A DNA stretch of 64,000 nt from Gammaproteobacteria bacterium. Lineage in GTDB: Bacteria > Pseudomonadota > Gammaproteobacteria > Eutrophobiales > Eutrophobiaceae. Where the stretch lies: positions 160,001 to 224,000 of the forward strand of contig CBDCDS010000003.1 of assembly GCA_965215365.1 (NCBI GenBank), in the 5' to 3' direction. Every line of letters starts with the position of its first letter. Positions within the stretch are counted from its first letter, which is position 1. Shown here in pieces: positions 18,000-37,804 of the stretch. Position numbers and translations under genes: made by a program. A model generated the notes under the pieces. The model saw only the letters and a list, made by a program, of their open reading frames with translations. It searched no databases and was not told the origin of the DNA.

Positions 18000-18090
18000 A
18001 TGTTTGTAGGCAGTACGGCTGTGCGACCTCCAAGCATATCATCTATCGTTTCGCCTTGAGTTAAAATGAGTCAATAATCGTTCTGTCTTG

Positions 18091-18765
18091 ATGCAAAAAT
18101 ATTCAGTTATCATCCCCGCGCTGAATGAAGCGGCTTATATCGGCCCGACTCTGGCGCGGTTGCAGGCCGCGCGCGCCCGCGGGCATGAGGTCATCCTGGT
18201 GGACGGCGGCAGCAGCGACAATACCTGCGCCATTGCCGCGGGCGCGGCTGACCGCATCGTACAATGTGAACCGGGCCGCAGCCGGCAGATGAATTACGGC
18301 GCCCGCTGTGCCTCCGGTGAGGTCTTTGTTTTTCTCCACGCCGACACACTGGCGCCGGTAGCCTTCGACCGTCTCCTCGATGCGCGTGGTGTCGGCGCGC
18401 ATAACTGGGGGAGTTTCGATGTCAGGTTGTCCGGCAACCATTTCATGTTCCGTTGTATTGAAAGGCTGATGAATCTGCGTTCCCGCGCAACCGGTATCAT
18501 CATGGGAGACCAGGCCATCTTTACCGGCCGGCGCCTGTTCTGGCAACTGAACGGCTATGCCGACATCCCGTTAATGGAAGACATTGAATTGAGCGGCCGG
18601 CTGAAGAAAGTTTCTGCGCCTATCCGTATCGAACAACCGGTTGTCAGCTCGTCTCGCCGCTGGGAACGACACGGGATAGTCAAAACCACCCTACTGTGCT
18701 GGATACTGAGGGGCCGGTATGCAATCGGCGCCGACCCGCAACGCCTTGTTAAATACTATCATTAA
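18091..18765 (+). CDS. GT2 glycosyltransferase, TIGR04283-like (arsenosugar-associated family)
   Basis: SVIIPALNEA, VDGGSSD, FLHADT, GDQAIF, PLMEDIEL, SSRRWERHG. Confidence 0.85.
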   Translation: MQKYSVIIPALNEAAYIGPTLARLQAARARGHEVILVDGGSSDNTCAIAAGAADRIVQCEPGRSRQMNYGARCASGEVFVFLHADTLAPVAFDRLLDARGVGAHNWGSFDVRLSGNHFMFRCIERLMNLRSRATGIIMGDQAIFTGRRLFWQLNGYADIPLMEDIELSGRLKKVSAPIRIEQPVVSSSRRWERHGIVKTTLLCWILRGRYAIGADPQRLVKYYH

Positions 18766-19490
18766 CCCGTATCTCTCACCGGGTGATGCGAAGATCGCGC
18801 CGGATTGGTTCTGCCTGTGGGTGCCTGCGACGATGAGCATAGCGGTAGCTATGGTTGAACAAGCACGTGCCCACAGGCAGAACCAAGACCCGCGAGGGCG
18901 CATCAAGCGCAGTGGGTTAGGTGGAAAGAGCAGCAGTATTACCATAACTTATTGAGAGTAATCATGTTGCACGAGACAACAAGCGGCTTGGTGAGAGATG
19001 CGGGTTAACCCGCATCTCTCACCGGGTGATGCGAAGATCGCGCCGGATTGGTTCTGCCTGCGGGTGCCGGCGACGATGAGCATAGCGGTAGCTATGGTTG
19101 AACAAGCACGTGCCCACAGGCAGAACCAAGACCCGCGAGGGCGCATCAAGCGCAGTGGGTTAGGTGGAAAGAGCAGCAGTATTACCATAGTTTATTGAGA
19201 GTAATCATGTTGCACGAGACAACAAGCGGCTTGGTGAGAGATGCGGGTTAACCCGCATCTCTCACCGAGTGATGCGAAGATCGCGCCGGATTGGTTCTGC
19301 CTGCGGGTGCCTGCGACCGAAACCATAGTGGTTCTCTGGTTGAGGAAGCACGTGCCCGCAGGCAGAACCAAGACCAGCGAGGGCGCATCAAGCGCAGTGG
19401 GTTAGGTGGAAAGAGCAGCAGCATTACCATAACTTATTGAGAGTAATCATGTTGCACGAGACAACAAGCGGCTTGGTGAGAGATGCGGGT
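18765..19490 (+). mobile_element. Three tandem copies of MITE family 1 (18765-19005, 19008-19248, 19251-19490) separated by TA
   Basis: 243-bp period; terminal inverted repeats acccgcatctctcacc / ggtgagagatgcgggt; TA at every junction and flank; internal inverted repeat ttggttctgcctgyggg / cccrcaggcagaaccaa; no transposase. Confidence 0.92.
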
Positions 19491-20154
19491 TAAGCAGACC
19501 GCATTGCTGGTGTTCACGAAAACGCCTGTACCGGGCACAGTGAAAACCCGCTTGCTGTCGGTGCTGGACGCGCAGCAGGCCGCCGCCATCCATGCCGAAT
19601 TATTGTGCTTTACCCTGGAGGTGGCGCGCCGCGCCGCCGTGAGTACTGTCGAACTGTGGTGCACACCGACCCGGCGGCATCCGCTTCTGCAAGGTCTTGC
19701 GCGCAGGTTTGCAGTGACGCTGCAGACACAGTCTGGCGCCGACCTGGGGGAACGTATGGACGCCGCCATGACGCGGACGCTGGCAAGCCACCGGCAGGTG
19801 CTGCTTGTGGGCAGTGACTGCGTGGACCTCAGCCCGGAGGATATCAACCTTGCCCTGGAACAACTGGCCGCGGGCAGCGAGGTGGCGCTGGGGCCGGCCC
19901 TGGATGGGGGTTATTACCTGATCGGGCTGTCCAAGCCGCAACGGCGCCTGTTTGAAGGCATCGACTGGGGCACCGATCGAGTCCTGCAGCAGACCCGCGC
20001 GCGAGTGGCGCAGTTGGGGTTAAGTTTGTTTGAACTGCCGCCGCGCCGGGATTTGGATCGCCCTGAGGACTTGCGCTATTTCCGGCCGCACGCGCCGACC
20101 GGGGAAGTCATTGCCCGGCAGGCGGGTTTTCTTCCTTGGGCGCGTAATCCTTGA
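19483..20154 (+). CDS. TIGR04282 / DUF2064-like glycosyl/nucleotidyltransferase; start codon lies in the MITE end
   Basis: FTKTPVPGTVKTRL, QSGADLGERM, VGSDC, LGPALDGGYYLIG, WGTDRV, DLDRPEDL; typical partner of TIGR04283. Confidence 0.87.
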   Translation: MRVKQTALLVFTKTPVPGTVKTRLLSVLDAQQAAAIHAELLCFTLEVARRAAVSTVELWCTPTRRHPLLQGLARRFAVTLQTQSGADLGERMDAAMTRTLASHRQVLLVGSDCVDLSPEDINLALEQLAAGSEVALGPALDGGYYLIGLSKPQRRLFEGIDWGTDRVLQQTRARVAQLGLSLFELPPRRDLDRPEDLRYFRPHAPTGEVIARQAGFLPWARNP

Positions 20155-20608
20155 TAAATTGCCGCGCCAGTTTTTTCGCTTCCTCCAGTTCTTCCGCCGA
20201 CAGGTTCTGTTCAGCTGTGGTGAGCGCGGCCATGGACTTCTTGTGCTCCTGCTCAGCGCCGGCGCGGTACCAGGCATACGCGTACTCGTAGTCTTTAGGC
20301 ACCCCTCTACCCTTCATGTAAAGCTCAGCTAGGTTATACTGGGCCTGTTTGATACCTTGTTCCGCAGCCTTGCGGAACCAACCCGCCGCTTCATCGTAAC
20401 TCTGTTCCACGCCGTGCCCGCGCAAATACATCATGGCGACATAGTATTGGGCAAGGCCGTGGTCAGCGGTTTCTGCAAGCGAACGCATGGTGTTGTAGGC
20501 CTGCTCATATTCCCCCCTGGAATAGGCAAACACACCGCTATAGAAGTCGGCAAACGCGGCGGGCGCGGACCAACACGCGAGCACAAAGACCAGCAAAAGT
20601 TTTTTCAT
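20108..20608 (-). CDS. Secreted Sel1-repeat protein
   Basis: Signal peptide; AQYYVAMMYLRGHGVEQSYDEAAGWFRKAAEQG and AQYNLAELYMKGRGVPKDYEYAYAW. Confidence 0.9.
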   Translation of the reverse strand: MKKLLLVFVLACWSAPAAFADFYSGVFAYSRGEYEQAYNTMRSLAETADHGLAQYYVAMMYLRGHGVEQSYDEAAGWFRKAAEQGIKQAQYNLAELYMKGRGVPKDYEYAYAWYRAGAEQEHKKSMAALTTAEQNLSAEELEEAKKLARQFIKDYAPKEENPPAGQ

Positions 20609-20615
20609 GGGTGGG

Positions 20616-20621
20616 ATTATA
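20616..20621 (-). promoter_or_regulatory. -10 box TATAAT 7 nt before the Sel1 gene ATG (possible leaderless transcript)
   Basis: Minus strand ggcTATAATcccacccATG; no SD. Confidence 0.5.
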
Positions 20622-20683
20622 GCCTATATTTTTTTCGGCGCCGGCGTTCAGTATTCTCGTGTGCGCGGGAATGAACCTGGGTC

Positions 20684-21352
20684 TCAACCCGGTTGATTGG
20701 TAAAAAAGGTCTTGATCTGGTTAGCCAGAGACTTGCAGGCGTTTTCTTGGACGCGGGCCAGTAGTGGCACCGGGATGATGACTGCCGGCATGAATGAGGT
20801 GCCTTTGGTTTCGGCGTTGATCTTGCCGGATAGGGCCAGTTCTTTGAAATCCCAGATACTGGCCTCGTAGTTGGCCTCATCCTTCCAGTAAGCAAACCCG
20901 AAACAACCGCCGCCGCCCGGTCCTACGGCGCAGGACACGGAGCCGGATTTATCCGTTCTTTCGGTGGCGCCGTCTATCCAGACGAAGTAGCGCAGGTTGA
21001 AATCGTTGAATTTCGAGGCAATCGCGGGGATTTGCGCCAGCCGGCCCAGGTTTTTCACGTCCATAGGCGCGGTGCTGGTCTCAAAATAGGGGTACATGCT
21101 GTCGACAAATTCCTGTTCCGGGATCACGTTGATGTCGGACTGGCCCTGGCGTAGCGATTGGCCGACACAACTGATGAAGTCATTCTCGGTTTCATAGCCG
21201 GAACTGTGCCGCCGTCCCAGCACCACGATGGCCTCGCCCCCGGCGATCATTGCCGTCGGCGCTTCCCGGTGCTCGTCGATCACGGTCGTGCTTTTGCAGC
21301 CAGACAGCAAGGCTGTGGCGAAGAGGACAGTGACGGCGGTCGGTATGTTCAC
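20684..21352 (-). CDS. Hypothetical lipoprotein of the VWA/ExbB operon
   Basis: Lipobox LLSGC; co-oriented with the operon; SCAVGPGGGGCFGF motif. Confidence 0.8.
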   Translation of the reverse strand: MNIPTAVTVLFATALLSGCKSTTVIDEHREAPTAMIAGGEAIVVLGRRHSSGYETENDFISCVGQSLRQGQSDINVIPEQEFVDSMYPYFETSTAPMDVKNLGRLAQIPAIASKFNDFNLRYFVWIDGATERTDKSGSVSCAVGPGGGGCFGFAYWKDEANYEASIWDFKELALSGKINAETKGTSFMPAVIIPVPLLARVQENACKSLANQIKTFFTNQPG

Positions 21353-21369
21353 GCTCGTAGCCTATTCAG

Positions 21370-21559
21370 GTTATTCATCCACAGATAACGCAGATAGTTA
21401 TTCATCCACAGATAACGCAGATTAACGCAGATTATTTCAGGAATCTTCGGTCGCATGTGCAAAAGGAGAACAAGTAGTGGCGCTTAACAATGCCCATGCC
21501 CTCCGTATTTTCTGTAATGAAAAACTATCTGCGTTAATCTGCGTTATCTGTGGATGAAT
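21370..21559. repeat. Inverted-repeat element built from 9/10-nt CGCAGAT units (family 2, copy A)
   Basis: Perfect 33-bp IR 21400-21432 / 21527-21559 (attcatccacagataacgcagattaacgcagat) around a 94-bp core; 26-bp tandem duplication at 21370-21395 / 21397-21422. Confidence 0.9.
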
Positions 21560-22163
21560 CAAACTGCTCCAGCCAGGCGCTGACGTTTGCCACTTTCGAA
21601 AAGCCAAGCGCAAATCTGGCGCCGGCGTCGCGTAAGGCCTGGTTGACCGCAGCGTTAAGGCCCTTGTTGCGGCTTTTCATAAATTCGGTGGAAGATTTGC
21701 CGTAACCGGTCACCGACCAGTTGGCAATGGCGCTGCCGTCCCGGTTGTAGAGTTCCACGTGGTACTTGATCCAGGCCTCGTAGAAGTCCGTCTTAGTCTC
21801 TGCTGGCAGGGCAAACTGCATTTCTGAGATGCTGGGCAGCAACACTGCGTGCACCTCGACCCGGGTGTTGGTTGTTGGCACTTCCGTGACCTCAGCGAAC
21901 ATGGCAGTCAGGATTTGCTGAAACAGGGCCAGATGGGAGGCGCCGCTGTCGATCTTCCATTCGGGCCGGTCTTCGGAATCTTCCTCGTAAACGTAATTAC
22001 GCAACTCGTCCGTATAGACTACCCCCATTTTCACCGGCAGGCGGGAGACGACCGGACTGGGAATCTCGCTGTCCACCCGCAACGACATGGACTGTTGGCA
22101 GGCAGTGAGGAACAACGCCAGCCCGAGCGGGGCAATGAGTTTATACAACACCTGTATGCGCAT
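21534..22163 (-). CDS. Hypothetical lipoprotein; last codons and stop come from repeat element A
   Basis: Lipobox FLTAC; C-terminal SSTDNAD* is read from the IR arm. Confidence 0.8.
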   Translation of the reverse strand: MRIQVLYKLIAPLGLALFLTACQQSMSLRVDSEIPSPVVSRLPVKMGVVYTDELRNYVYEEDSEDRPEWKIDSGASHLALFQQILTAMFAEVTEVPTTNTRVEVHAVLLPSISEMQFALPAETKTDFYEAWIKYHVELYNRDGSAIANWSVTGYGKSSTEFMKSRNKGLNAAVNQALRDAGARFALGFSKVANVSAWLEQFDSSTDNAD

Positions 22164-22187
22164 ATTCACAGATTAGCACAAATACAA

Positions 22188-22325
22188 TCCGCAGATGACG
22201 CAGATGGGCGCAGATATTTTCGATGATTCATGGATGCTTTAGGTTGCCCCCTGCATTGACGATGGCGAGCAGAAAAATTTTGAAATTCCTGAAAATAATC
22301 TGCGTTCATCTGCGGCATCTGCGGA
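22188..22325. repeat. Inverted-repeat element, family 2, copy B
   Basis: Arms tccgcagatgacgcagatgggcgcagat (22188-22215) and atctgcgttcatctgcggcatctgcgga (22298-22325), 3 mismatches; core unlike copy A; abuts the VWA gene stop. Confidence 0.85.
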
Positions 22326-23330
22326 CTAAAATGCCCGGCCTGGCTCGTTCAGACCTACATAAGCCCCGCCGTTCTCGTGAGTGAGTTGGCGCATGAGGGC
22401 GGCGAAATGCCTGTTAGTCAGCTGGAAGTGTTCGGGGGCGCTGGCGGGAACCGGGAAGCCAACTGCGTGGATGCGCACTTTGGTGTTGCCGTGCTGGTCT
22501 TTCGGGTTGATGCGTTCCACCGCGTCCAGCACTTGCCTGATTGAACCGGAAAATTCATCGCCGTACACGTAAATGCTGATCTTCTTGCCGGGGTCGTAAA
22601 ACGTGCGGATCGCTTGGGTAATCCCCTCCACCGGGCTGCTGTTGCTGAAGGTGCGCCAACTGCGCAAAGTCCTGATGATGACCCGGCGCCGGCCTTCGGT
22701 GTCGGGTATCCATCTGCGCCGGTATTGGGAGAACAGGTACTCACCCATGTCGCTCATGATCTGTATGCCTTGCAGGCGGGGATAGACGTCCAGAGTGGTG
22801 ATTAACTGCTTGATCATGTTTTCCCAGTGACTGTTGACCATGCTGCCTGAGGTGTCGATGATGAAGATGACGTACTCGCTGTCCACCGGAATGCCGCCGA
22901 TCAGGCCGCTCTGCGCCCGATCGGTCTGCGCCAGCAAGCGTTTCATCTCCGCCGTCAGAGTTTGCAGGGCCAGTTCAAATTCACCCTTGATGATCTCGCC
23001 CACGGCAGAATCGTCGCGCACGCTGTTATAGCGCAGCTCCTCTTGCACCAGTTCCGCCTCCAGGCGCGCCACCCGTTGCCGCCACTCGGAACGCTGTTCG
23101 TGTTTGGCGTTCAGTTCCCGGTCCAGAACTTTCGCCTCGCCGCGAATTTCAAACAACTGGATCTGTAATTCCCGCACGATGCCTTGCAGAGATTCCTGGG
23201 CGCGCTCCAGGATGGGGCTGTCACCGGTTTTGGCGATCATCAGCAACAAGATGATAGCGCCGAAGCCGCAGGTGATGACGTCCAGGAAGGAAATGCTGAA
23301 CGCCTCGTTCTCGCGCCGTTTTTTCCTCAT
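22326..23330 (-). CDS. Membrane-anchored coiled-coil + VWA domain protein
   Basis: N-terminal TM SFLDVITCGFGAIILLLMI; coiled coil; MIDAS FIIDTSGSM. Confidence 0.85.
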   Translation of the reverse strand: MRKKRRENEAFSISFLDVITCGFGAIILLLMIAKTGDSPILERAQESLQGIVRELQIQLFEIRGEAKVLDRELNAKHEQRSEWRQRVARLEAELVQEELRYNSVRDDSAVGEIIKGEFELALQTLTAEMKRLLAQTDRAQSGLIGGIPVDSEYVIFIIDTSGSMVNSHWENMIKQLITTLDVYPRLQGIQIMSDMGEYLFSQYRRRWIPDTEGRRRVIIRTLRSWRTFSNSSPVEGITQAIRTFYDPGKKISIYVYGDEFSGSIRQVLDAVERINPKDQHGNTKVRIHAVGFPVPASAPEHFQLTNRHFAALMRQLTHENGGAYVGLNEPGRAF

Positions 23331-24412
23331 GGCCAGTCCTCGCTGGGGATGAGGAAGGCGCCGTTGGTGCTCATGGCCAGACGCCAGAAGGCAAAAGCCG
23401 CGTTGGGGTCGCCTTCCATGGGCGCCAGGATCACATTCATCGGTATGCCACCGGGCAGACGTTCTACCGCCCGGGTAAACAAGTCCAAGCGTTGCTTGCC
23501 AGTGATGGTCGCCCCGCGTACCCGTTTGGAACCCTGAGTAGGCAAGCCGTCGGTGATCAGATAGACGTTATCGGGCCGGGGCCGCAGCTTACTGATAGTA
23601 ACAAAGGCCTGCTCCAGATTAGTGCCGCCTTCCGGCACGATCCGGCCCAGGGCTTCGATCATCGCGTTCAATTTCGCCTTGTTGCTGACCTCCAGCCACT
23701 TCCCGGCCAGCCCCGGTAACAATGCGCGCGCTTTTGTATTGAACACGTAGATCTGGTACTGGCTGTCCCTGGGCAGCCGCGCGCTGAGCCAGTCCACCAT
23801 CCTTAACGTCTGCACCCATTTCGGCGCGTTGCGTTTTACGCCGTCACGCATGTTGCGAAAGCGGATGATATTGACGATGGTATCGTCCAGCATGCTGCTG
23901 GAGACATCCAGCAGGATGAGGATACGCTTGCCGTCCAGCTTCAGCCCGGTCAGATACTCGCGCTTGCCGTCACCGACCAGACGCCGGACATCGCTGCCGC
24001 GGTCCTTCAGATCTTCCTGCAACTGTTGCTTCTGTTCCTCCAGTTGCTTGATGTTGAGCTTCAGTTGCTCCAGCTCTACGCTGCTGGTAGTCTCCGACAG
24101 TTGTTCGATCAAGGCGCGCGTCTCCTCTATTTTCGCCATAATGCGCCGCGCCATGCCCTGCGCCACGACCAGTTCCTCGTCGATTTCCGAGATGGTGTTG
24201 CGGGTTTTGGCGAGGTTCTGCCGGCCTTCCAGTATTTCCTCTTCCAGCAACATCACCTCAGCGGTCTGCTCCCGGTTATTAACGGGAATGGGCACGTTGG
24301 TATCGACGTTATGCTTGATGATGAGGAACAACAGCACCGCCGAGCCGAAGCCGCAGGACATGATGTCCAGAAACGATAGGCTGAAGGGAGTAAGCAGTCT
24401 GCGGTTACGCAC
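23327..24412 (-). CDS. Membrane-anchored coiled-coil + VWA domain protein (paralog)
   Basis: SFLDIMSCGFGSAVLLFLII; MIDAS LLDVSSSM, GGTNL, LITDGLP. Confidence 0.87.
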   Translation of the reverse strand: MRNRRLLTPFSLSFLDIMSCGFGSAVLLFLIIKHNVDTNVPIPVNNREQTAEVMLLEEEILEGRQNLAKTRNTISEIDEELVVAQGMARRIMAKIEETRALIEQLSETTSSVELEQLKLNIKQLEEQKQQLQEDLKDRGSDVRRLVGDGKREYLTGLKLDGKRILILLDVSSSMLDDTIVNIIRFRNMRDGVKRNAPKWVQTLRMVDWLSARLPRDSQYQIYVFNTKARALLPGLAGKWLEVSNKAKLNAMIEALGRIVPEGGTNLEQAFVTISKLRPRPDNVYLITDGLPTQGSKRVRGATITGKQRLDLFTRAVERLPGGIPMNVILAPMEGDPNAAFAFWRLAMSTNGAFLIPSEDWP

Positions 24413-25719
24413 TATGTCAGGACTCTGATCAGCGCGAATTCACGGTCGCAGTGGGCAAAGCTGATGGTGTCGCCCGGCCTGAGGTCGGTATTGCTTGCGG
24501 CGGCCCGACCGTTGACGTAAACCGCGCCATGGCTTGCCGGAAACAGGGTTGCCGTGGCGTCGTTCAGGGCTACCGAGCAAAGCGGGTTGTGGCTGTCGGA
24601 CTGCACCGGCGCGCCCTGCGCAGACAGGTATAGCGGCATCGCCCCCAGCGGATAGGCCTCGACGCCGGCTAGGATATGGGTTGGGCTGGCTTGTTGTGCC
24701 AAGACTGCCGGCGCGGTAACGCCAATTGCCGGCTGTGCAGTGGCCGCAAGCTGAGTGACGAAGTAAATCGCTGCGCCGGCCTTGCGCTGTTGCTGCACAT
24801 AGTCCATACAACCGGCATATACGGCGCACACGTCCAAGGTATCGACCTGCGGGGTGACTCGCGTCAGCTGTTCGACAACAGCCGGCAAGCCGGCCAGACG
24901 CGGGTGCAGCAACGCCACCCGGTCGCTCTCGACGGCAGCGCTGAGCTTGTCGTACAACGGTTGTAACGCCGCCACCAGTTGCTCCCGGCCCACCCGGGCC
25001 TGGTAACGGGCCTGCTCAAATTCAATATCGACCTGCGTCTCAGCCCCCTGCGCCAGTTCGCGCAGACATTGCGCCATGCGGTTGCACAAGGCCTGTTCCG
25101 TTACTGCGTGGTGCAGGGGGTCAAAACGGGATTGCCGAATGAACAGGTCGGCAACATGGTTGACGCAGCTATCCTGAATTTCCAGCAACCCGACTTCATT
25201 GACAACCTGCACCGCCGTGCGCTGCACCGTGTCTGACACCTCCAGGGAAGTCATTACAGTCTGATGCAGGTGGATATCCAAGTGCACGTAACTCCCGGCA
25301 CCGGCCGTCGCCGCCAGCGCCGCGACAGCGCTGTCCACCAGACCCACCGCAGTAAACGGGGAGGCCTCCAACAGCCCCAGCAGCAGGGCCAGTTGCTCCG
25401 CGCTGAAACTACCCGGCACCGCCAGCGCCACCTGCTCCACCCCATCCGCCATTTCATGCAAAGACAGCAAATGGGCGTAGGCCAGATCGGCATTATGCCG
25501 CGCCAGTTTCGAGTGGTGCTTGAAGCCATCCTGATTAAGATCACTCCAAAACCGGCTGAAGGTATTACGCGGGTCAATATGGGTAGCCGCCAACGCCGCC
25601 CGCCCCAGCTCAACCCGATCCTCTTTGAGCACCGCAATGCCGGGGCTACTCACCACGACCTCACCGCCCCGGAAGAGCGTTACTCCGGCATCGTTGAGTT
25701 CAATGACGGCGGTGTTCAT
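24412..25719 (-). CDS. Hypothetical protein: degenerate Hsp70/actin-like fold plus C-terminal FHA-like domain
   Basis: AVIELNDAG, VALAVPGSFSAEQ...GLVDSAVAA and VHLDIHL resemble Hsp70 motifs; SHGAVYVNG...LRPGDTISF resembles FHA. Confidence 0.65.
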   Translation of the reverse strand: MNTAVIELNDAGVTLFRGGEVVVSSPGIAVLKEDRVELGRAALAATHIDPRNTFSRFWSDLNQDGFKHHSKLARHNADLAYAHLLSLHEMADGVEQVALAVPGSFSAEQLALLLGLLEASPFTAVGLVDSAVAALAATAGAGSYVHLDIHLHQTVMTSLEVSDTVQRTAVQVVNEVGLLEIQDSCVNHVADLFIRQSRFDPLHHAVTEQALCNRMAQCLRELAQGAETQVDIEFEQARYQARVGREQLVAALQPLYDKLSAAVESDRVALLHPRLAGLPAVVEQLTRVTPQVDTLDVCAVYAGCMDYVQQQRKAGAAIYFVTQLAATAQPAIGVTAPAVLAQQASPTHILAGVEAYPLGAMPLYLSAQGAPVQSDSHNPLCSVALNDATATLFPASHGAVYVNGRAAASNTDLRPGDTISFAHCDREFALIRVLT

Positions 25720-25728
25720 TTATATGCT

Positions 25729-25776
25729 TACCGCACCTGCAAATGCCGCAGCAGGTTGACGTCGCAGTAATGCTGT
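25729..25776. repeat. 48-bp direct repeat, copy 1 (3' end of the exbB/motA-like gene)
   Basis: taccgcacctgcaaatgccgcagcaggttgacgtcgcagtaatgctgt, identical to 27122-27169. Confidence 0.95.
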
Positions 25777-25874
25777 ACGAGAAGGAAAGTTATTTTATTC
25801 ATTGACAAACCTTTGTAGATGTGTCACAAAGTGGGTGTTGTAATTCCGAATTCCAAACACACTAGGAGACGAGT

Positions 25875-26457
25875 ATGACACAACTGACACACTACCTCAA
25901 AAATCGGGGGGGGGGGGGGTAACCCTGTAGCCGAGAAAATATCCGCAACGAAAGCTGCCCCTGTACCGGGAGCAGCGTTCCTGATTTTCGTGCTGGCGCT
26001 GCCCGCCGGTGGGGCGCTGGCCAACACGACTACCGGGATGATCGACGGCAATTATGCCGTGCAGTTGCCGGCCGGTATTTACATGCGCAACTCGAGGGGG
26101 TACACAACGGTCTGTATTCAAATCACTGGCAGTGGCAGCACTGCGACAGGGACAATTAAGGCCCGCAGGCACAATGGCACGTGGGAGAGTCTCACCGGCT
26201 CTAGGACGGTCACGTTACTCGGATTGGGCGTAGAAAACCCCTCAAATGACCAACTGGGAAGAAGAGAACGTGCTTGGCTGGCATCTTGGGGCCCCAGACC
26301 CACAAACTGGAACGGCAACAATCGCCGCTTTGATGAACATGGCTGGAGAGGCCACTTGACAAGCGGAAATGTATTGCGCGTTGCAGTGGATAATCATATC
26401 CTGAAAATGACCGGAGATGGCCGATTACCCATGACCCATGGGAGCAGCTGCCCGTAG
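25875..26457 (+). pseudogene. Secreted hypothetical protein frameshifted at a G14 tract (candidate phase-variable gene)
   Basis: SD AGGAG + ATG 25875 reads MTQLTHYLKNRGGGG*; G run 25906-25919; the next frame is open from there to 26457 with hydrophobic signal AFLIFVLALPAGGALA. Confidence 0.7.
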
Positions 26458-26476
26458 TAACTCGAACAACAAACCT

Positions 26477-26519
26477 TGATGGGGAGTCAGTCCTGAATTA
26501 ACCGACTGGCTCCTCATCA
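26477..26519 (+). terminator. Stem-loop downstream of the poly-G gene
   Basis: tgatggggagtcagtc / gactggctcctcatca, 16-bp stem with two G-U pairs; no clear U tract. Confidence 0.5.
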
Positions 26520-26537
26520 CTGTAAAGGCCACCTCTA

Positions 26538-26694
26538 ACCCGCAGCTCTCACCAAGTCGCTTGTTGCGTTGTGAAAAATGATTGCTCTCAATAAGTTATG
26601 GTAATACTGCTGCTCTTTCCACCTAACACGGTGCGCTTGATCCGCCCTCGCCAGTCTTGGTTCTGCCTGCGGGCAAACCCGCAGCTCTCACCAA
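26538..26694 (-). mobile_element. 137-bp right module of MITE family 1 (26538-26674) plus terminal stub (26677-26694)
   Basis: TA-acccgcagctctcaccaagtcgc...ttggttctgcctgcgggc, reverse-oriented match to the right part of the 241-bp element, then acccgcagctctcaccaa. Confidence 0.85.
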
Positions 26695-26698
26695 ATTA

Positions 26699-26938
26699 TC
26701 AGGCAACATGTATTTCCTCCCGGATGACCCGACGCAGAGTGCTTTCAAGGGGTTCACCCTGACGCTGCACATGGTGGCGTAGCGCGTCATTTATCAGGGA
26801 TTGATAATTTCCACCGCCCCGTACCTGATCCTTGACCCATTGAATAATATCCGGATCAAGTCGAATCGTAATACGTTCTTTCGCAGTTTTAACTATTGCC
26901 CCGCGTCTGCCTTCACTGAAATCATAATGTTCTCTCAT
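26699..26938 (-). CDS. brnA: BrnA family antitoxin
   Basis: MREHYDFSEGRRG...KERITIRLDPDIIQW...GGNYQSLINDALR. Confidence 0.85.
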   Translation of the reverse strand: MREHYDFSEGRRGAIVKTAKERITIRLDPDIIQWVKDQVRGGGNYQSLINDALRHHVQRQGEPLESTLRRVIREEIHVA

Positions 26939-26942
26939 AGTA

Positions 26943-27092
26943 TCAAGCCTCATATTGTCTGCGCTCTTGTTTGTTTGCCTTACGCGCCGAGATAAGACGA
27001 ACAATGTCTCCCGCCCGTTGCATACTCACAACTACCAATACCTGTAGATTGAAATCCAGTCCAATCGTGATAAGCCACTGCTCGTTGGCAGA
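26943..27092 (-). pseudogene. brnT: BrnT toxin, C-terminal half only
   Basis: NEQWLITIGLDFNLQVLVVVSMQRAGDIVRLISARKANKQERRQYEA*; in-frame TGA upstream, N-terminal half absent. Confidence 0.8.
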
Positions 27093-27120
27093 TCAGATAA
27101 ACTGTCGTTCCGAGCGTTAC

Positions 27121-27924
27121 CTACCGCACCTGCAAATGCCGCAGCAGGTTGACGTCGCAGTAATGCTGTGTATCCAGTACCAGTCGTTCCTGTAACAACT
27201 GTAGCTGGTGCATCAGGAACATGATGAAAATGCTGATGATCAAGGCGATGAAGGTGGAATTGAAGGCCACGCCCAGGCTCACGGTCACGCCGACAATATC
27301 CCCTTCCACAGCGCGGTGGGCCTGCCCTAAGGCCGCGCCGATGCCGCGCACTGTACCGATGAAGCCAATGGAAGGTATCGCCCAGATGATGTACCTGATC
27401 ATGGAAAGTTCGGAATCCAGCCGGTCGGATTCGGTATCACAGACCTCCCTGATGGCCGAGGACACATCCTGAATAGCCGCAGTGGAACCAAAGCGTTGCA
27501 ATGCCGCCTGCAGGGCGCGCGGCAACAGGTATTCCCGCTCATCCTGCGCCAACGCCTGCAACGGGCGCAGGTACTGGCGGGTATCCTCCGGCAAAATGGT
27601 AGCGCCGGGCGGCAACTCCAGCAGCGCGCGACCTAACAAGCGTCTTTCAGCGAGCGCCACCCTGGCTTTCCAGCCAATAATGGCAATGACCCACAGAGCT
27701 AGGATAAAACAGGCCTCTTGCTCAAAGTCTTTGATCACGATAAACACAGAGCGTTGTACCTCGTAGCCCTCCCCGACCTCCTGTTGCAAACGCTGCTCCT
27801 CCAGCAACGCCTCCGCATTCGGTCGCACTACCGCCACGTACAATGCATGCACGATAATGATCGCGGCGATCAAGGTAAACAACTGGTAGAAAAAATCTGT
27901 AGTCTGGTTGAGTCTCACAGTCAC
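27121..27924 (-). CDS. MotA/TolQ/ExbB proton channel family protein
   Basis: Four TM segments; WAIPSIGFIGTVRGIG and SLGVAFNSTFIAL match ExbB/TolQ TM2-TM3. Confidence 0.9.
   Translation of the reverse strand: MTVRLNQTTDFFYQLFTLIAAIIIVHALYVAVVRPNAEALLEEQRLQQEVGEGYEVQRSVFIVIKDFEQEACFILALWVIAIIGWKARVALAERRLLGRALLELPPGATILPEDTRQYLRPLQALAQDEREYLLPRALQAALQRFGSTAAIQDVSSAIREVCDTESDRLDSELSMIRYIIWAIPSIGFIGTVRGIGAALGQAHRAVEGDIVGVTVSLGVAFNSTFIALIISIFIMFLMHQLQLLQERLVLDTQHYCDVNLLRHLQVR
27122..27169. repeat. 48-bp direct repeat, copy 2
   Basis: Identical to 25729-25776; encodes QHYCDVNLLRHLQVR up to the stop. Confidence 0.95.
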
Positions 27925-27931
27925 ACCATGG

Positions 27932-28225
27932 TTATATGTCCACCGGAAAGTCTATGGAGTAATCCTCGGAAACTTCCTCGGTCGGGTCGAAGAGTTCTGG
28001 CGCGACTTGGGCTGCTTCCTCTTCATCCTGCTGTTCAGTAGTTTCCTGTTTTGCTTGTGCGGAGTTAGGTTCAGTGCCGTCGGGAACCTCTTGCGCTACC
28101 GCCGTAACAGCAGCAAACAAAACAAGCAAAAGAGCCGTTCTATAACATCGCAGAATACCTTTGCGCTTTTGGCTATCTACTATTTTCAATTTACGAACAT
28201 GATTTGTGTTCTTCGCAGCTTCCAT
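27932..28225 (-). CDS. Small exported acidic protein of the operon (start uncertain)
   Basis: Signal-like TALLLVLFAAVTAVAQ; acidic tail FDPTEEVSEDYSIDFPVDI. Confidence 0.65.
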   Translation of the reverse strand: MEAAKNTNHVRKLKIVDSQKRKGILRCYRTALLLVLFAAVTAVAQEVPDGTEPNSAQAKQETTEQQDEEEAAQVAPELFDPTEEVSEDYSIDFPVDI

Positions 28226-28330
28226 TTATTCTTCCAGTAAAGTTTCAATTTCACGGGCTAGGGCGGGCAGGTTTGTACGACATCCCATACCACGAATGTC
28301 GTACAGATACTTCCGCGCTTCAAGTTTCAT
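28226..28330 (-). pseudogene. Internally deleted HepT/DUF86 (HEPN) toxin remnant
   Basis: SD GAGG + MKLEARKYLYDI joined to (shifted frame) VVWDVVQT / NLPALAREIETLLEE*; central RxxxxH region absent. Confidence 0.6.
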
Positions 28331-28393
28331 AAGGTAACCTCTAAAAATACCCTCCGTGGACGCAACCCTCGCCCCATAATTCCAATGATGCGT

Positions 28394-28713
28394 TCAGCGC
28401 GGGATTAGCCTGCACGACAAATCTTGCAGGCGTTTCACCAGTGCTGGAGAAAGGTACAAAGATTCAACCGTTTCATCTTCATTCCCCAATAGGGTAGCCT
28501 GACTTGATCTGCCAGCATAAACCGGCAGGTGTTTCAGACCAAGACTCCCAGGTAGTTTTTTTCCATGCACCCTGTTTCCCGTTTGCCCATCATAACTTAC
28601 GATGTAGGAAATATTGTCATCTTTCAACTCAAATCCGGTCAAGAGATGCACATTGTCATGCCTTACGTGAAGTTGGCCTTCGTTTCCCTTATTACCTCGA
28701 TGCTGTCCTTTTG
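28394..28713 (-). pseudogene. C-terminal fragment of a Dam-like DNA adenine methylase
   Basis: SYIVSYDGQTG...AGRSSQATLLG...ESLYLSPAL resembles the C-terminus of a Dam-family subgroup; no DPPY or SAM motif; frame begins at a palindrome. Confidence 0.55.
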
Positions 28714-28742
28714 AGGGTGCCTCTAATTAATAGAGGCACCCT
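28714..28742. repeat. 29-bp palindrome (collapsed IS/MITE ends or terminator)
   Basis: AGGGTGCCTCTA-attaa-TAGAGGCACCCT directly at the MTase stop codon. Confidence 0.7.
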
Positions 28743-30379
28743 TATCTTTTAACTCGGTAAGTTCCATTGACGGTTTTTTCGATGTTAAGTTGTTGAAGAT
28801 AGCGCGCCTCATCGAAATCGGTTGCACCTTTTAGAAACTGGTTGTGAATCGGAAGTGACTCCAGATCACCTCTTAGTATTTTGTGCGTGTTGAATATGCT
28901 TGAAAACACCCAATTCATAAAATCACTACTCAAAATATCCCCCAGCATCTTCGTTGAAACAGGGAAGGTTGCATCAGGAATCAATATATTTGCACTATTA
29001 AGGACAGCCCTCTGTTTGTCATCATAAAAGAAACACAGTTTCGATGAAATGAACTTGTAGATAAGCTTTTCCTTTGCCTCGTACATCGTCAGTGGTGCTA
29101 CTTGCTGGTACAGACGCATATCGGACGGGATGAAGCTGGTGGCATCCTTCAATTTTCCTTTTAGAATATCAGCGCCTTTATAAACTGGAATATGGCCGCT
29201 TTGAGGTGAAGACTTTACAAACTTTTTATTGTTGCCCGTAACAATACCCAAGCCCCACGATGCTTGATTCTTGAGCGTTGTGTATGGCACTGACAGCAGG
29301 TGTTGCAATGTTATTGCATCTTCGTCATCACAATACAAATTCAGTATCGACTTTGGATTGCATGAGAATGAGTCACTGAATCTTTTGAATCTGATGCCCT
29401 CAGCTTCGCATGAAATACTGGAACGAGGAGTGGAAGGGGTTTTCCCAAGAATGATGCCCTGTGCATTTGTTACAAGTCCCTTGAATACCTTTCCGTAGTC
29501 AATCAATCGTTCGATAGAAAGCTGAAGGGCTTTAATGCGCGCATCTTCAAAAGCAGCGATATTAAAAAAGGCCTCGGGCAAAAGTAATCCAAGCCTTCCA
29601 TTCACATTGAGGCAGCGCAGACAAGCAAAGAAAAACAGGGAACAAGTGTCTATGCTGGACCCTGCTCCCAGCCTCCAACCTAGGGCCTCTCTTGTTTGCC
29701 TGTCAATCTTCTTGCCCCATGGTGGATTTGTGTATATATGGTCAAAACAGGAGGTTTCTTTGCGTAACGACGTATCAAGGAAATCGGCAATCCTGATATT
29801 TTCACTTTTGTGGCCGGTTGTCTTATAGATTCTGGTTTTTGTTATTTCGACTGCAACCGGGTCAATATCATATCCATAAATATTTTCCGGCCTGAAACCC
29901 AACTCTATTGCGCGCATGATGAAATTTCCGGAACCACAGCACGGATCACAGAACGAGTTGTTCAGGACATCATTTTCCGGTGGCGCGAACAGATCGCGCA
30001 CAACCCCTTCCGGCGTATAGTAGATTCCTTCTTTGTTGCGATAGGAGTCAGATAAACTCGATTCATACTCCATACCAATTTTACCTGACGAACCGGCAGA
30101 TAAACTGATATCATTGAGAAACTTTGACACAGTTTTGTCGTGGTCATGCCAGTCTTTCAGTGACTTATTGGCCCGTTGGGTCAACTTTGCCTTGCCGGAC
30201 ATATCAGCCTTGAACTGCTCCAATGATTCAAGAGTGACCCTTCCTTTCCCCGCCGATTCCAGATATTTCGTCTTTATCCAATTACGAATCGTCGCAGTGG
30301 AAACACCCAGACGAATCGCTGATTCCTCAATAGCGATCGCCGGAGGATCAACTCCACCAAACAGATTGCATTGTTCCAA
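28742..30379 (-). CDS. N6-adenine DNA methyltransferase (gamma class, TaqI-like) with N-terminal HTH
   Basis: SAIRLGVSTATIRNW (HTH); GIYYTP, DPCCGSGNF (motif I), YTNPPW (motif IV); AT-rich relative to flanks. Confidence 0.9.
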   Translation of the reverse strand: MEQCNLFGGVDPPAIAIEESAIRLGVSTATIRNWIKTKYLESAGKGRVTLESLEQFKADMSGKAKLTQRANKSLKDWHDHDKTVSKFLNDISLSAGSSGKIGMEYESSLSDSYRNKEGIYYTPEGVVRDLFAPPENDVLNNSFCDPCCGSGNFIMRAIELGFRPENIYGYDIDPVAVEITKTRIYKTTGHKSENIRIADFLDTSLRKETSCFDHIYTNPPWGKKIDRQTREALGWRLGAGSSIDTCSLFFFACLRCLNVNGRLGLLLPEAFFNIAAFEDARIKALQLSIERLIDYGKVFKGLVTNAQGIILGKTPSTPRSSISCEAEGIRFKRFSDSFSCNPKSILNLYCDDEDAITLQHLLSVPYTTLKNQASWGLGIVTGNNKKFVKSSPQSGHIPVYKGADILKGKLKDATSFIPSDMRLYQQVAPLTMYEAKEKLIYKFISSKLCFFYDDKQRAVLNSANILIPDATFPVSTKMLGDILSSDFMNWVFSSIFNTHKILRGDLESLPIHNQFLKGATDFDEARYLQQLNIEKTVNGTYRVKR

Positions 30380-30391
30380 TTTTTCTACCTT

Positions 30392-30838
30392 TTATCGTTT
30401 TATGGGGTCAAATAACGGGTTGCGAGTCAACAGGGATGGGAAACGGCTGAAGTCCTTGTCCGCGGTGAATAACTCACTGACTCCGTGAGAGAGACAGATG
30501 GTGGCAATACGCGCATCATGAATCTCCGGGCCTCGGGCTCTGCCGTCCGTTATCAATGAGTCCAACCGCGCCAGGTGATCGGCGGCTTCACCTATCATGA
30601 CCAGAGACGGGGATGCAAGCCAGGCGCCTACCTGCTCAAGAGCCTGCGGCGCGGTAGAAGGCGGATCATAGATCCGGGGATGCGTTGCAATAGCTAGGAA
30701 TTCGTGGACGCACGGCCACGGTATTGCCCAAGCATGTTGTGCCTGGGCAAGACTTGTTACTACGTCTCTTGCGCGTTGATGCCATTCGCTGTCCTGCCGG
30801 TGTGCATAAACCAGTATATTTGTGTCAACGGCGATCAA
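30392..30838 (-). CDS. vapC: VapC / PIN-domain toxin
   Basis: TTG start overlapping the antitoxin stop; IAVDTNILVYAH, HEFLA, HDARIA, TADKDFSRF. Confidence 0.9.
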   Translation of the reverse strand: MIAVDTNILVYAHRQDSEWHQRARDVVTSLAQAQHAWAIPWPCVHEFLAIATHPRIYDPPSTAPQALEQVGAWLASPSLVMIGEAADHLARLDSLITDGRARGPEIHDARIATICLSHGVSELFTADKDFSRFPSLLTRNPLFDPIKR

Positions 30839-31080
30839 TTGCCGCGGTCCTCGTAGGCGGCGTGTCTGACAGATGCCCAAGGCTTGTCCCTGAATTCGGC
30901 CCGCAACCCGTTCCCGGCCACGCTCCTGTCTGCCAGACGGAACAATTCGGCCCGCTTGGCTTCCTGCAGGGCATAACGGAGGCCTTGTTCAACGAGCGCT
31001 CGAAAAGTAGTGCCGCGTTTCGCCGCAAGCGCCTTGGCTTCCAGCGCCAGCGCATCGGATAAATCAATGGTTGTCTTCAT
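30835..31080 (-). CDS. vapB: VapB family antitoxin
   Basis: MKTTIDLSDALALEAKALAAKRGTTFRALVEQGLR, RHH-type, coupled to vapC. Confidence 0.85.
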   Translation of the reverse strand: MKTTIDLSDALALEAKALAAKRGTTFRALVEQGLRYALQEAKRAELFRLADRSVAGNGLRAEFRDKPWASVRHAAYEDRGN

Positions 31081-31223
31081 GCTGTAAACCCATATCAGAT
31101 GATATGGGAGACCATATACTACATTGGATGGTCCTGTCAAGAGCATGTTCATGTTTTCTTTTTCTTGCCACCAGTGCCATATCGTCCGTATAATACACAC
31201 TCGGACAAATGTAAGGAATGCGC

Positions 31224-31502
31224 ATGCGTTTTGAATGGAATCGGGCAAAGAACGAGATCAATATCCGCAAGCACGGAATCGACTTTGCAGATGTAGGGGA
31301 GATGTTTGATCATCCGACATTGATCTTGCAGGATGTCCGTAAAGACTATGGAGAAGAGCGTTGGGTTGCCATTGGACAACTGCAATCGTTGCTATGCGTT
31401 GTTGTCTATACCGAACGCCCCGGTGATGTGCTGCGCGTTATTTCCGCCAGAAAGGCGACTCAATATGAAAGACAACGCTATGAAAAAAGGATCAAGAACT
31501 GA
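31224..31502 (+). CDS. brnT: BrnT family toxin
   Basis: MRFEWNRAKNEINIRKHGIDF...DYGEERWVAIG...VVYTER...RVISARKAT; SD AAGGA. Confidence 0.92.
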   Translation: MRFEWNRAKNEINIRKHGIDFADVGEMFDHPTLILQDVRKDYGEERWVAIGQLQSLLCVVVYTERPGDVLRVISARKATQYERQRYEKRIKN

Positions 31503-31610
31503 TTGGAAGCGGCTAAGGCAAATGAAGGATGAGACTATTGATACCGGCGATATTCCAGAACTGGATGATGAGTTCTTTCGACGGGCAGAAGTAAAGACCA
31601 TGCCCAAGCT
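31480..31610 (+). pseudogene. brnA: BrnA antitoxin N-terminal half (RHH C-terminus lost)
   Basis: MKKGSRTDWKRLRQMKDETIDTGDIPELDDEFFRRA followed by unrelated sequence; no TLRLD...YQT.IN segment. Confidence 0.7.
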
Positions 31611-31707
31611 CGCAGGCCCATGGGGCATCTTTGAAAAGTTGAGCAGTCTTCTGCATATCCGGTTTGATAATGAGGGAAAACCGGTCAGCAAATCATCCCC
31701 ACTCCCC

Positions 31708-33762
31708 TCAATACGCGAATCGGGCAATTCTGAAACCTAAGTCATTTCTGGCTGCGCTGTCGTAGTCGCGGTGGGACAGGCGTAGTTCGGTGACGGTGCT
31801 GTGGCGCCAGCTGGCGCCGCGGATGACATGGAGGTCGCCACGGTCCGGCCCCATGGGATTGAGTTCGGCTTTTTTGTCGGTACTGACTACTACGTCATAG
31901 ACATCGTTGACCCACTCTGCGACATTGCCGCCTAAGTCGAACAGGCCCTTGTCGTTGGCGGGGAAGCTGCCTACCGGCGCGCTGACGATGTGCCCGTCAT
32001 CGTACTCGCCGATGATACGCCCCAGCAGGGTGGCGGCCTTGCGGTCGGCGTAGTTGCCGCTGTTGGCTGCGGGCGGCATGGCGGCGCCCCAGGGGAACTT
32101 GAGGGTGGCGCCCGTGCCGGTGGTGCGCGCCGCCCAGGCCCACTCCGCCTCGGTGGGTAAACGGTAGCCGTCGGCGGTTTTGTCAAACCCGGTGATGTTA
32201 CCGTTTTCCTCAAGATAGAACGGCGCCAGGGACGCCTCTTTGCTCAACCAGTTGCAATACTGCGCGGCCTGCTCCCAGCTCAGGTTCACCGCCGGCTGGT
32301 TATCCCCGTTCAGGCTGTTGCCCTGTACACTGCCAGAGGAAAAATCCTTGCTGAACAAGCGGTACTCCCGGTTCGTGACTTCTTTCAGACTCAGGTAAAA
32401 CGGGCGTGTGAGTTGCACGTTGCGAATGGTTTCATTGGCCCGGCGTCCCGGTTCCCGGCGCGAGGCGCCCAGGGTGACCGGGCCCGGGTAAAACAGCTTG
32501 AGGCGTGGCCCGCCCGGCGCCTCAATGACTGGCTTGAGAGCTTCCAGCTTGGCTTGTTTGACGGTCTTTAAGGTCACATTCAACTGCTGTTCCACACCGG
32601 GCAGGGGGGTGAGTGCGGTCTTATAATCCACATAGCCCGGCTTGCGCACTTCGATGTTGTGGGCACGCGTGGATAAACGCAAGGCGCCATCGGTGACTGC
32701 GGCCAAGGCGCCGTCCACATACACTGCAGCGTCGGCCGGTTTGATCTTCACGGCCACGCGCACCCACTCAGGCTGTAAGTTGACGGACACTCTTTTCTGC
32801 TCGCCCGAACGCGCCTGCACCGACATGGAGGCAGGTTGGTAGCCCTGTTTGAACAGACGCACTTGCGCGGTTTCTCCCGGTGTCAAAGGAACCTCCAGCG
32901 GCGTCAACCCCAGGAAATTGCCGTTTAAGGTGGCATTCGCCCGCGCCGGGTCGGAAACCAGGAACAAGGTGGCATCCGCCGCTTCCAGCCTGATATCAGT
33001 CAGCTCCTGCGGCTCGCCGGCGACTACGGCAATCGTGTCCTGCCAGGCCTTATAGCCGTTCGCCCGCACCGTCAGCTCATGCCTGCCTTCCAATAATTCC
33101 ACCGTGAGCGGAGTTGTGCCAAGCAGGTCTGCGCCGCTGAACACCTGCGCCTGCGGCGGCGTCGATGCCAGCCTGAGCATCGCCCAGGCCGGTTTCAATG
33201 CAGCGCTGAAACGCTGTTCCCGATCCAGCCCTGCCAGCATGACCGTCGCACGCAACGGCAAATAGCGTTCTGCCTTGATCTCAACCCGATACTCGCCAGG
33301 TACAAGGTCGCTGAGCAGCAACGGCGTCTCCCCCCTGGCCACGTTATCTAAGAACACGGTCGCGCCGGTAACGGCGCCGGTGTCTATATGCAGGTGTCCG
33401 GGCAGTTGCTCCAGCCGGTAAACATAATGCTGTGCCGCGGCGTCGGTGACGACCAGGGTTTCCTGCAACGGCTGGTAGCCTACGGCAGTCAGCGTCAGGT
33501 CATAAGTCCCGGCGCGCACTAGGTAGCGCTTGCCCAGTTGCAGTTGTAATAGGCCGGAAATATCGATGTTGGCAGCGGGCGGTTCCGTTTCAATATACAC
33601 TGCCCTGGTGGTCAACATGAACCAGACACAGCCGGCCGCGCCGACGAGTAACGCGCCGAGCAGGCACAGGCGCAGGTTGATCCTGAGCGACCAACCGGAT
33701 TTTTTTGACGAAAGCGGCTCGAATTTTGCCGCGTCAATACGGGCATCGGCACTAACCCGCAT
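31708..33762 (-). CDS. Membrane-anchored PEGA-repeat + FGE-sulfatase (SUMF1-fold) protein; present start lies in the MITE end
   Basis: TM helix, several PEGA repeats (LGTTPL, GYKAW), C-terminal EVTN, RLPTEAEWAWAAR, GLFDLGGNVAEW, LGFRIAR. Confidence 0.9.
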   Translation of the reverse strand: MRVSADARIDAAKFEPLSSKKSGWSLRINLRLCLLGALLVGAAGCVWFMLTTRAVYIETEPPAANIDISGLLQLQLGKRYLVRAGTYDLTLTAVGYQPLQETLVVTDAAAQHYVYRLEQLPGHLHIDTGAVTGATVFLDNVARGETPLLLSDLVPGEYRVEIKAERYLPLRATVMLAGLDREQRFSAALKPAWAMLRLASTPPQAQVFSGADLLGTTPLTVELLEGRHELTVRANGYKAWQDTIAVVAGEPQELTDIRLEAADATLFLVSDPARANATLNGNFLGLTPLEVPLTPGETAQVRLFKQGYQPASMSVQARSGEQKRVSVNLQPEWVRVAVKIKPADAAVYVDGALAAVTDGALRLSTRAHNIEVRKPGYVDYKTALTPLPGVEQQLNVTLKTVKQAKLEALKPVIEAPGGPRLKLFYPGPVTLGASRREPGRRANETIRNVQLTRPFYLSLKEVTNREYRLFSKDFSSGSVQGNSLNGDNQPAVNLSWEQAAQYCNWLSKEASLAPFYLEENGNITGFDKTADGYRLPTEAEWAWAARTTGTGATLKFPWGAAMPPAANSGNYADRKAATLLGRIIGEYDDGHIVSAPVGSFPANDKGLFDLGGNVAEWVNDVYDVVVSTDKKAELNPMGPDRGDLHVIRGASWRHSTVTELRLSHRDYDSAARNDLGFRIARFAY

Positions 33763-33995
33763 ATCTCACCAAGTCGCTTGTTGCCTTGTGAAGCATGATT
33801 GCTCTCAATAAGTTATGATAATACTGCTGCTCTTTCCACCTGACACACTGCGCTTGATGCGCCCTCGCTGGTCTTGGTTCTGCCTGCGGGCACGTGCTTG
33901 TTCAACCATAGCTACCGCTATGGTTTCGGGCGCAGGCACCCGCAGGCAGAACCAATCCGGCGCGATCTTCGCATCACTTGGTGAGATATGCGGGC
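33755..33995 (-). mobile_element. Full-length 241-bp MITE family 1 copy (reverse orientation)
   Basis: TA-acccgcatatctcacc...ggtgagatatgcgggc; colinear with the tandem copies on the minus strand. Confidence 0.92.
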
Positions 33996-34012
33996 TGGGG
34001 TCAGTCATCAAC

Positions 34013-37700: not shown

Positions 37701-37721
37701 AATGAACACCCTGATTACTTA

Positions 37722-37736
37722 GCCCGCATATCTCAC
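37722..37736 (+). repeat. Isolated terminal stub of MITE family 1
   Basis: TA-gcccgcatatctcac just upstream of the operon's first gene. Confidence 0.6.
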
Positions 37737-37804
37737 AGATGGTTTCTCTACCAAGGCCAATGATAAGACATTCACATGACGCTGACAATATCCACCGCCC
37801 CTTG

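Follow-up and report, generated by a model that had tools for sequence, protein, structure and literature searches.

The stretch of DNA analysed here, the window, is 64,000 nucleotides long (G000:C3:160001-224000) and comes from G000, a gammaproteobacterial genome of 2.73 Mb and 58% G+C that we compared with those of 22 congeners. Two of its genes have been entered close to their 5' ends by copies of a MITE (miniature inverted-repeat transposable element)—one, for a PEGA/FGE-sulfatase protein, by a single copy (case a), and the other, for a DUF2064 protein, by three copies in a row (case b)—and both can now be read from an ATG that lies within the element, instead. The features are collected in Table 1.

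In case (a), the native frame, ATG ACT GAC CCC AG, runs into the element and stops at 33805, 43 nt before the element's own ATG. The latter lies in the near end of the element, which reads GGTGAGAT ATG CGG GTT AGT GCC GAT and opens a gene of 684 codons. A preliminary description of the window held that removal of 33753-33995 restores a native MTDP start at 34008, and that this start now runs into a stop inside the element, the gene resuming as MRVSADARID; both claims hold. An element-free ortholog, 92% identical (L001), starts at the displaced ATG—GGGGGACTGAGTTG ATG ACT GAC CCC GGC ACT GAG GCC CGC, that is, MTDPGTEARIKAAKF (MTDPGTEARIK)—and the sequence upstream of it is identical to that upstream of 34008. 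Contigs of the public runs X7 and X9, which are some 2-6% divergent, join 33741 to 33997, an empty site with the native ATG kept; contigs of runs X5 and X6 break inside the element.

In case (b), the array has inserted at a TTAA in which the glycosyltransferase-2 gene upstream has its stop codon. Because the TAA lies in the duplicated TTAA, that gene keeps its stop: it ends CAT TAA in the window and CAT TGA at the same spot in a relative. Deleting the array restores ...ATC ATT AAG CAG to the DUF2064 gene. Along the array, three open reading frames (ORFs), of 78, 66 and 54 codons, begin at the native ATG or at an element end and extend into the next copy. The preliminary description was right that the array interrupts the 5' coding region and that the gene now begins MRVKQT from 19483, but the native start it named, a TTG at 18746, is less likely than the ATG at 18719. 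An in-frame ATG equivalent to 18719 (e.g. MQSAPTRNALSNTIIEQTALLVF) occurs in element-free G006, G005, G008 and G007, four of the nine relatives whose loci were examined; both candidate codons lie upstream of the insert. Remnants of element ends occupy the same DUF2064 site in G002 (L020) and G010 (L024), giving the independent starts MRVEQKT and MRVKKEV. At this TTAA (18762), three species thus carry an insertion and at least four do not, which marks either a hot spot or repeated loss.

Table 1. Element copies and neighbouring genes in the window, followed by further genes of G000 that would start at an element end (a slash marks the insertion point)
Feature	Coordinates	Strand	Remarks
MITE copy (a)	33753..33995		243 bp; 239-bp core 33756-33994 + flanking duplication bases; inserted after codon 4 of PEGA/FGE gene
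PEGA/FGE-sulfatase gene as readable now	31708..33762	minus	element ATG 33762..33760; MRVSADARID...
Displaced native-start ORF (MTDP...)	33805..34008	minus	ATG at 34008; 67 codons through far inverted repeat
Triple head-to-tail MITE array	18762..19489	plus	243+243+242 bp, joined by TTAA
DUF2064 (TIGR04282-like) gene from last element end	19483..20154	plus	MRVKQTALLVFTK..., MRVKQTALLVF; 223 codons
Native-start ORF of DUF2064 gene	18719..18955	plus	MQSAPTRNALLNTII...; enters copy 1 and stops there
Two further ORFs in array	18998-19198, 19241-19405	plus	each from element-end ATG, ending in next copy
Glycosyltransferase-2 gene upstream of array	18088..18765	plus	stop TAA within duplicated TTAA
Mini-copy, about 60 bp	14121..14185		left end reads CTG outward
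Half copy, then solo inverted repeat	26535..26695		both CTG outward
Solo inverted repeat, ATG type	37718..37738	minus	adjoins gene start; ATG stops after 4 codons, out of gene's frame
GlyS			native MATS/KKDLLF; now MRVKKDLLF
PrlC			native MS/NPLL; now MRVNPLL
HldE			native MQAIS/NSF; now MRANSF
RadA			native MTTKT/RARK; now MRAKARK
MreD			native TTG start overlapping mreC stop, ...GP/SGS; now MRASGS
TolB			native GTG start, MNVIKYF/SC; now MRVSC
CinA-like			native GTG start, ...PI/SAG; now MRVSAG
HisB			native MSNN/RQAAV in G006, native ATG deleted in G000; now MRARQAAV
DeoC			native MTIHATDIA/RTIDH; now MRASTIDH
MetF			native ...HSL/KLSFEFF; now MRAKLSFEFF
Lnt			native TTG start ~20 codons upstream; now MRASACRQGLL
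BamB			native MRVKPLV; now MRVKPLV

Anatomy, number and origin of the element

The MITE consists of a 239-bp core and a 4-bp target duplication, YTAR, 243 bp in all or exactly 81 codons. Its inverted ends are 15-20 bp long and share a 15-nt core, CCCGCAT(A/C)TCTCACC. Read outward, each end comprises GGTGA-GAT-ATG-CGG-G followed by the duplicated YTAR—a five-base match to the tail of 16S rRNA, three bases, and then ATG—with CTG in place of the ATG in one third of the ends. Neither of the remaining two frames across the end contains a start codon, and in one of them the duplication's TAA or TAG acts as a stop. The element has no transposase gene; its internal ORFs, of 84 amino acids (aa) or fewer, lie within the repeat. 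It has the terminal inverted repeats, the target duplication and the short, multicopy form of a MITE, and its sites are empty in relatives and in the X7 and X9 contigs.

The whole of G000 was searched for matches to GGTGAGATATGCGGGTTAA with four mismatches or fewer, a threshold at which, by our own arithmetic, about seven chance matches are expected genome-wide. The search found 277 ends: 174 ATG, 92 CTG and 11 other. The core measures 239 bp in 30 of the 63 left-right pairs and 238 bp in 12, and in 31 the 4-mers flanking the two sides—mostly TTAA or TTAG—are the same. Repeat intervals number 214, many of them shortened copies or solo ends, and 17 head-to-tail junctions of less than 10 bp. The end pattern is present in 21 of the 23 genomes of the genus, with 237 matches in G000 versus 0-77 elsewhere. 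G000 is among the smallest genomes searched (the others span 2.6-5.0 Mb) and by far the richest in element ends.

We considered whether ATG or CTG marks one particular end of the element and rejected the idea: all four combinations occur (14, 14, 7 and 7 of 47). The ends at 14125 and 26538 in the window read CTG, and that at 18765 reads ATA, just as had been reported for them. The two arms of the element are not used alike: the A arm (...CAACAAGCGACTT before GGTGAG) predominates at ends that face gene starts, 42:14, versus 54:68 at ends that do not face genes (p=1.7e-4), and this preference holds for insertions within genes and just upstream of them alike. Where the duplication is expected to be CTAG it is often CCAG or CTGG at the far copy, as at 33996-33999 in the window and near positions 903405 (mreD) and 1872349 (radA) of G000:C3. 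Five ends in G000 read GCGGGCCAG and six read GCGGGCTGG. This drift resembles, we presume, that from CTAG to CCAG or CTGG ascribed to very-short-patch repair. A perfect 48-bp direct repeat in the window, 25729-25776 and 27122-27169, 1393 bp apart, is unrelated to the MITE.

Elements of the IS1380 family have ends that begin CC, and make 4-5-bp duplications. One of the congeners, G006, harbours an autonomous insertion sequence (IS) of about 1.77 kb (L095, G006:C1:1022300-1024350) with the same ends as the MITE, CCCGCATATCTCACC...GGTGAGATATGCGGG, bordered by CTAA on one side and TTAG on the other. Its 474-aa transposase matches NF033539 at 394 bits (cutoff 180) and PF13701 with E=1e-146. Since this IS has the ends of the MITE and encodes an IS1380 transposase, the MITE family is, as judged from its termini, IS1380-derived and not of IS5 origin. 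The identity is confined to the terminal 20-22 bp at each end, however, and only the IS has a transposase. Copies of the IS, judged by end pairs about 1.77 kb apart, are present in G003, G005 and G006; a tblastn search of G000 found no homolog of the IS1380-type transposase.

Reading frames at the element ends

The preliminary description proposed a genome-wide count of genes in frame with element ends. We made this count on the 243 ends that do not abut another copy (158 ATG, 74 CTG, 11 other), measuring the open run outward from each end in three frames, with frame 0 that of the ATG. Runs were kept if they had at least 80 codons and a codon-usage score that exceeded 0.25 and was the highest of all six frames; of the single paralog pair, only one member was counted. 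The in-frame enrichment that had been anticipated is there. ATG ends fall in frames 0, 1 and 2 in the ratio 32:4:8 (chi-square p=1.6e-7), whereas CTG ends fall evenly, 7:6:7 (p=0.95), and the two kinds of end differ in their share of frame 0 (Fisher p=0.006). These results hold at two or three permitted mismatches.

The in-frame excess lies wholly in genes that have no native ATG nearby, by which we mean no in-frame ATG within 15 codons downstream of the end. There the counts are 24:0:2 for ATG ends and 1:3:0 for CTG ends. Where such an ATG exists, and the element has inserted just upstream of a native start, they are 8:4:6 and 6:3:7, with no clear bias. In this just-upstream class, which comes on top of the insertions within genes, about 34 ends of the ATG or CTG type lie ahead of a native ATG by anything from a few bases to some 15 codons, and that ATG often overlaps the duplicated CTAA or TTAA. 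Insertion therefore seems to favour the gap between ribosome site and start codon.

The same count, applied to the flanks of all 126 ends listed for G003 and G005, gives 8:3:2 and 10:2:0, respectively, 18:5:2 together (p=1.7e-4), and 14:1:1 in the class without a nearby ATG. All of the ends found in these two species are ATG-like, and the CTG variant was not seen in either. The genes concerned differ from those in G000 and include GlnS-, GlmM- and AtpC-like ones, N-termini being judged by eye; the events are therefore independent. At its own lnt gene, G003 has an independent element end, which gives MRVKVLV.

Fourteen genes were checked against orthologs: the two in the window and 12 more, named from NCBIfam equivalog hits, which were compared with up to five element-free relatives. 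Orthologs that start downstream of the insertion would have spoken against donation of a start; instead, in all 14 the insertion falls downstream of the native start and within roughly the first 20 codons. The genes are single-copy, apart from the CinA-like locus. The latter belongs to a duplicated segment (G000:C3:572572-576108 and 786276-788598) of at least two genes, the CinA-like one and a 424-aa neighbour, with 99% identity between the copies; both copies of the segment carry the element at the CinA start. The frames that begin at element ends are open at full length, 711, 686 and 496 codons for example, and the alignments of their proteins begin at profile positions 1-6. On the protein side, the match to the family profile begins at residue 2-6 in HisB, PrlC, DeoC, RadA, GlyS, MetF and BamB; in HisB, residues 2-197 align to positions 2-197 of the 197 in the profile. 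For glyS we also considered that the frame had been gained by loss of one base from a run of A, and ruled this out from the genome's own far flank (ATGGCTACCTCTAA).

Probable start donation and its alternatives

What we observe is how the ends are built, where the element has inserted, and a frame bias that depends on ATG and recurs in other species. From these we conclude, with a probability of about 85%, that the ends of this MITE donate start codons to genes hit within their first 20 or so codons, and that insertions which donate none are purged. An element that lands at nYT/ARn in this region would place its ATG in frame and remake the protein as M-R-(V/A)-x plus what remains of the original, with ribosomes beginning at the element ATG. 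Insertions in another frame, or with a CTG end, would destroy the gene and be lost; only in-frame ATG ends would then survive inside coding regions, the others having been purged. That glyS, lnt, bamB, hisB and other single-copy genes persist intact in this form implies translation from the element ATG. The idea of a portable start cassette that makes 5' coding insertions tolerable, with which the preliminary description ended, thus has comparative and statistical support from three genomes.

That description pictured the end as a Shine-Dalgarno-like (SD-like) motif plus an ATG. The ATG part is sustained by the dependence of the bias on it; the SD-like part is moderately supported. The 16S rRNA of G000 has the 3' tail GGATCACCTCCTTA, whose UCACC pairs with GGUGA, and the duplex of this tail with the element end, at -7.7 kcal/mol, is stronger than those of 86% of 292 unambiguous starts (mean -4.7; SDs are weak across this genome). 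Chen and colleagues reportedly found, in 1994, that one aligned spacing is favoured, and GGUGA three bases from the AUG fits it.

A number of observations weigh against start donation. The SD-like match is in itself unexceptional, since 13-14% of real starts, and of random ATGs too, equal it. In-frame genes show no stronger conservation of the end sequence than other sites do (mean mismatches 0.20 versus 0.31, p=0.97). The counts rest on gene calls made by our own codon-usage filter, with no curated annotation behind them. GTG or TTG occurs in codons 4-16 of 11 of the 25 in-frame genes, and could serve as the start. In element-free G006 and G005, bamB already begins ATGCGGGTTAAG. Last, the ends of the element pair with each other in the predicted RNA fold: read-through RNA of the full element folds at -143.8 kcal/mol (z=-9.8), the stem burying both GGUGA and AUG, and the partner repeat is still present in 16 of the 25 cases within coding regions.

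The hairpin is probably overcome by ribosomes that begin at the retained native start: these would translate the far repeat, stop about 43 nt before the element ATG and, in melting the stem, unmask that ATG and allow a restart. Alternatively, the far end has been lost. The displaced native start stands in the same frame as the element ATG because 243 = 81x3. Native start codons have, by our reading, been kept in nine of the 10 tested genes with both repeats and in two of the four without the far repeat; the numbers are small, and the insertions may just be too young to have lost them. That the ATG is freed at element-started genes because the far repeat is lost there was considered and rejected: the repeat persists in 16 of 25, versus 91 of 218 other ends. 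As a second possible route to expression, the element may contain a promoter. Copy (a) has a promoter-like site, GTGTCA-17-TATTAT, with nine of 12 matches; array (b) has no such site, and no consistent promoter could be read by eye in the consensus.

Among other explanations the one that fares best, though we think it improbable, is that translation of the interrupted genes begins further downstream, at GTG, TTG or another codon, and that the bias arises because an out-of-frame ATG with a ribosome site interferes with the real start and is purged. The 11 genes just mentioned would suit it, as would the depletion of the other two frames at ATG ends relative to CTG ends, 12 of 158 versus 13 of 74 (p=0.04). 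In the other 14 of the 25, however, codons 4-16 contain no ATG, GTG or TTG, and a later start would cut conserved residues from proteins whose profiles align from residue 2-6. Interference alone, moreover, depletes frames 1 and 2; it cannot create 24 in-frame coding insertions.

Somewhat less probable still is that the pattern reflects target preference rather than selection, the transposase preferring sequences similar to its own end (ATGCGGG+YTAR) or in a codon-phased setting. The start of bamB does resemble the element end already, and its frame match is attributable to that likeness; the head-to-tail junctions mark an element end plus TTAA as a favoured target, and the same DUF2064 site has been filled in three species. 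Against this, 13 of the 14 native N-termini do not resemble the element end (MTDP, MATS, MSN, MQAIS, MTTKT and others), and the CTG ends of the same family are unbiased. Neither does the bias come from the frame of the target, because YTAR is no commoner in the in-frame register: in 822 long ORFs it occurs 1876 times as nYT/ARn, which puts the ATG in frame, versus 2168 times as YTA/Rnn. That the interrupted genes are dead, recent pseudogenes whose pattern means nothing, is very improbable: the copies are young and alike (20 of the 25 in-frame cases have perfect cores), and the 237 matches in a small genome fit relaxed selection, but dead genes should show neither a frame bias nor an ATG/CTG bias, their frames would not be expected to remain open at full length in single-copy genes, and several of them—glyS, lnt, bamB, mreD—are essential in model Gram-negative bacteria.

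Beyond start donation itself, we venture a wider view, doubtful though we are of it as a whole. The outward SD and ATG might be an adaptation of the IS1380-type lineage that turns the first codons of genes into a survivable landing zone. This could perhaps operate by relay, with native-start ribosomes unzipping the hairpin, stopping about 43 nt upstream and restarting. The 81-codon length would keep the frames in register, arrays would pass ribosomes from copy to copy, and the preference for the A end would reflect a further expression signal.

Relation to known repeats, and significance

Translational coupling through the mycobacterial interspersed repetitive units (MIRUs) was reportedly described by Supply and colleagues in 1997. 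MIRUs are repeats in operons whose small ORFs overlap the flanking stop and start codons, not unlike the possible short-ORF relay in array (b), but they lie between genes rather than inside them and are tandem units without a known transposase partner. Overlap of their ends with flanking genes is noted by Delihas (2011, PMC3184786).

REP2 of Neisseria is alike in being a repeat whose ribosome-binding site plus ATG are fused to ORFs; here, GGTGA-GAT-ATG is in frame with 32 coding-like frames. As described by the same author (Delihas 2011, PMC3184786), REP2 lacks terminal inverted repeats and target duplications, and comes with a promoter and 5' untranslated region. The MITE, in contrast, has terminal inverted repeats, with a candidate promoter in copy (a) only, and its start signal lies within the transposon inverted repeat, works from either end and replaces native starts inside coding sequence.

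BOX, RUP and SPRITE, BRE, the Anabaena MITEs and the Rickettsia palindromic elements are likewise small, non-autonomous repeats that overlap gene ends, according to portions of two reports (PMC3184786, PMC3049150). In the same portions, some such repeats extend 5' ends or sit in frame within proteins, and many are fused in frame to ORFs; in 36 genes the stop codon comes from BOX, and the hypothetical ORFs that BOX starts lack good SDs (Croucher et al., PMC3049150). The cases covered there, then, concern 3' ends, inserts in frame within genes, or hypothetical ORFs that lack good SDs. Unlike in-frame inserts of the Rickettsia type, our MITE is not translated within the host protein; native frames stop inside it, instead, giving ORFs of 67 and 78 codons. 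Full-text searches, with supplements and subscription journals outside their reach, found no genome-wide, frame-selected replacement of native housekeeping start codons by MITE ends. Within the literature so covered, the fusion of a repeat to an ORF, or a portable start site, is of a known kind; a transposon inverted repeat that replaces native starts with an ATG-dependent bias is new.

Transposon insertions in coding sequence are usually treated as knock-outs; the survivors described here suggest how the host may come to bear them. In a single genome, no fewer than two dozen genes seem to have obtained their start codon from a mobile element, including genes for a tRNA synthetase subunit and for envelope biogenesis, and other genes in sister species show the same. 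There are consequences for annotation, in that automatic callers may misplace starts derived from the element or call such genes broken. The element gives its hosts a ready N-terminus, M-R-x-K/R/S/N, that resembles the charged start of a signal peptide. Adjacent as it is to a strong hairpin, the element ATG offers a natural and testable model for translational restart, and the donation of starts helps to explain how so compact a genome comes to carry so many copies of a MITE.

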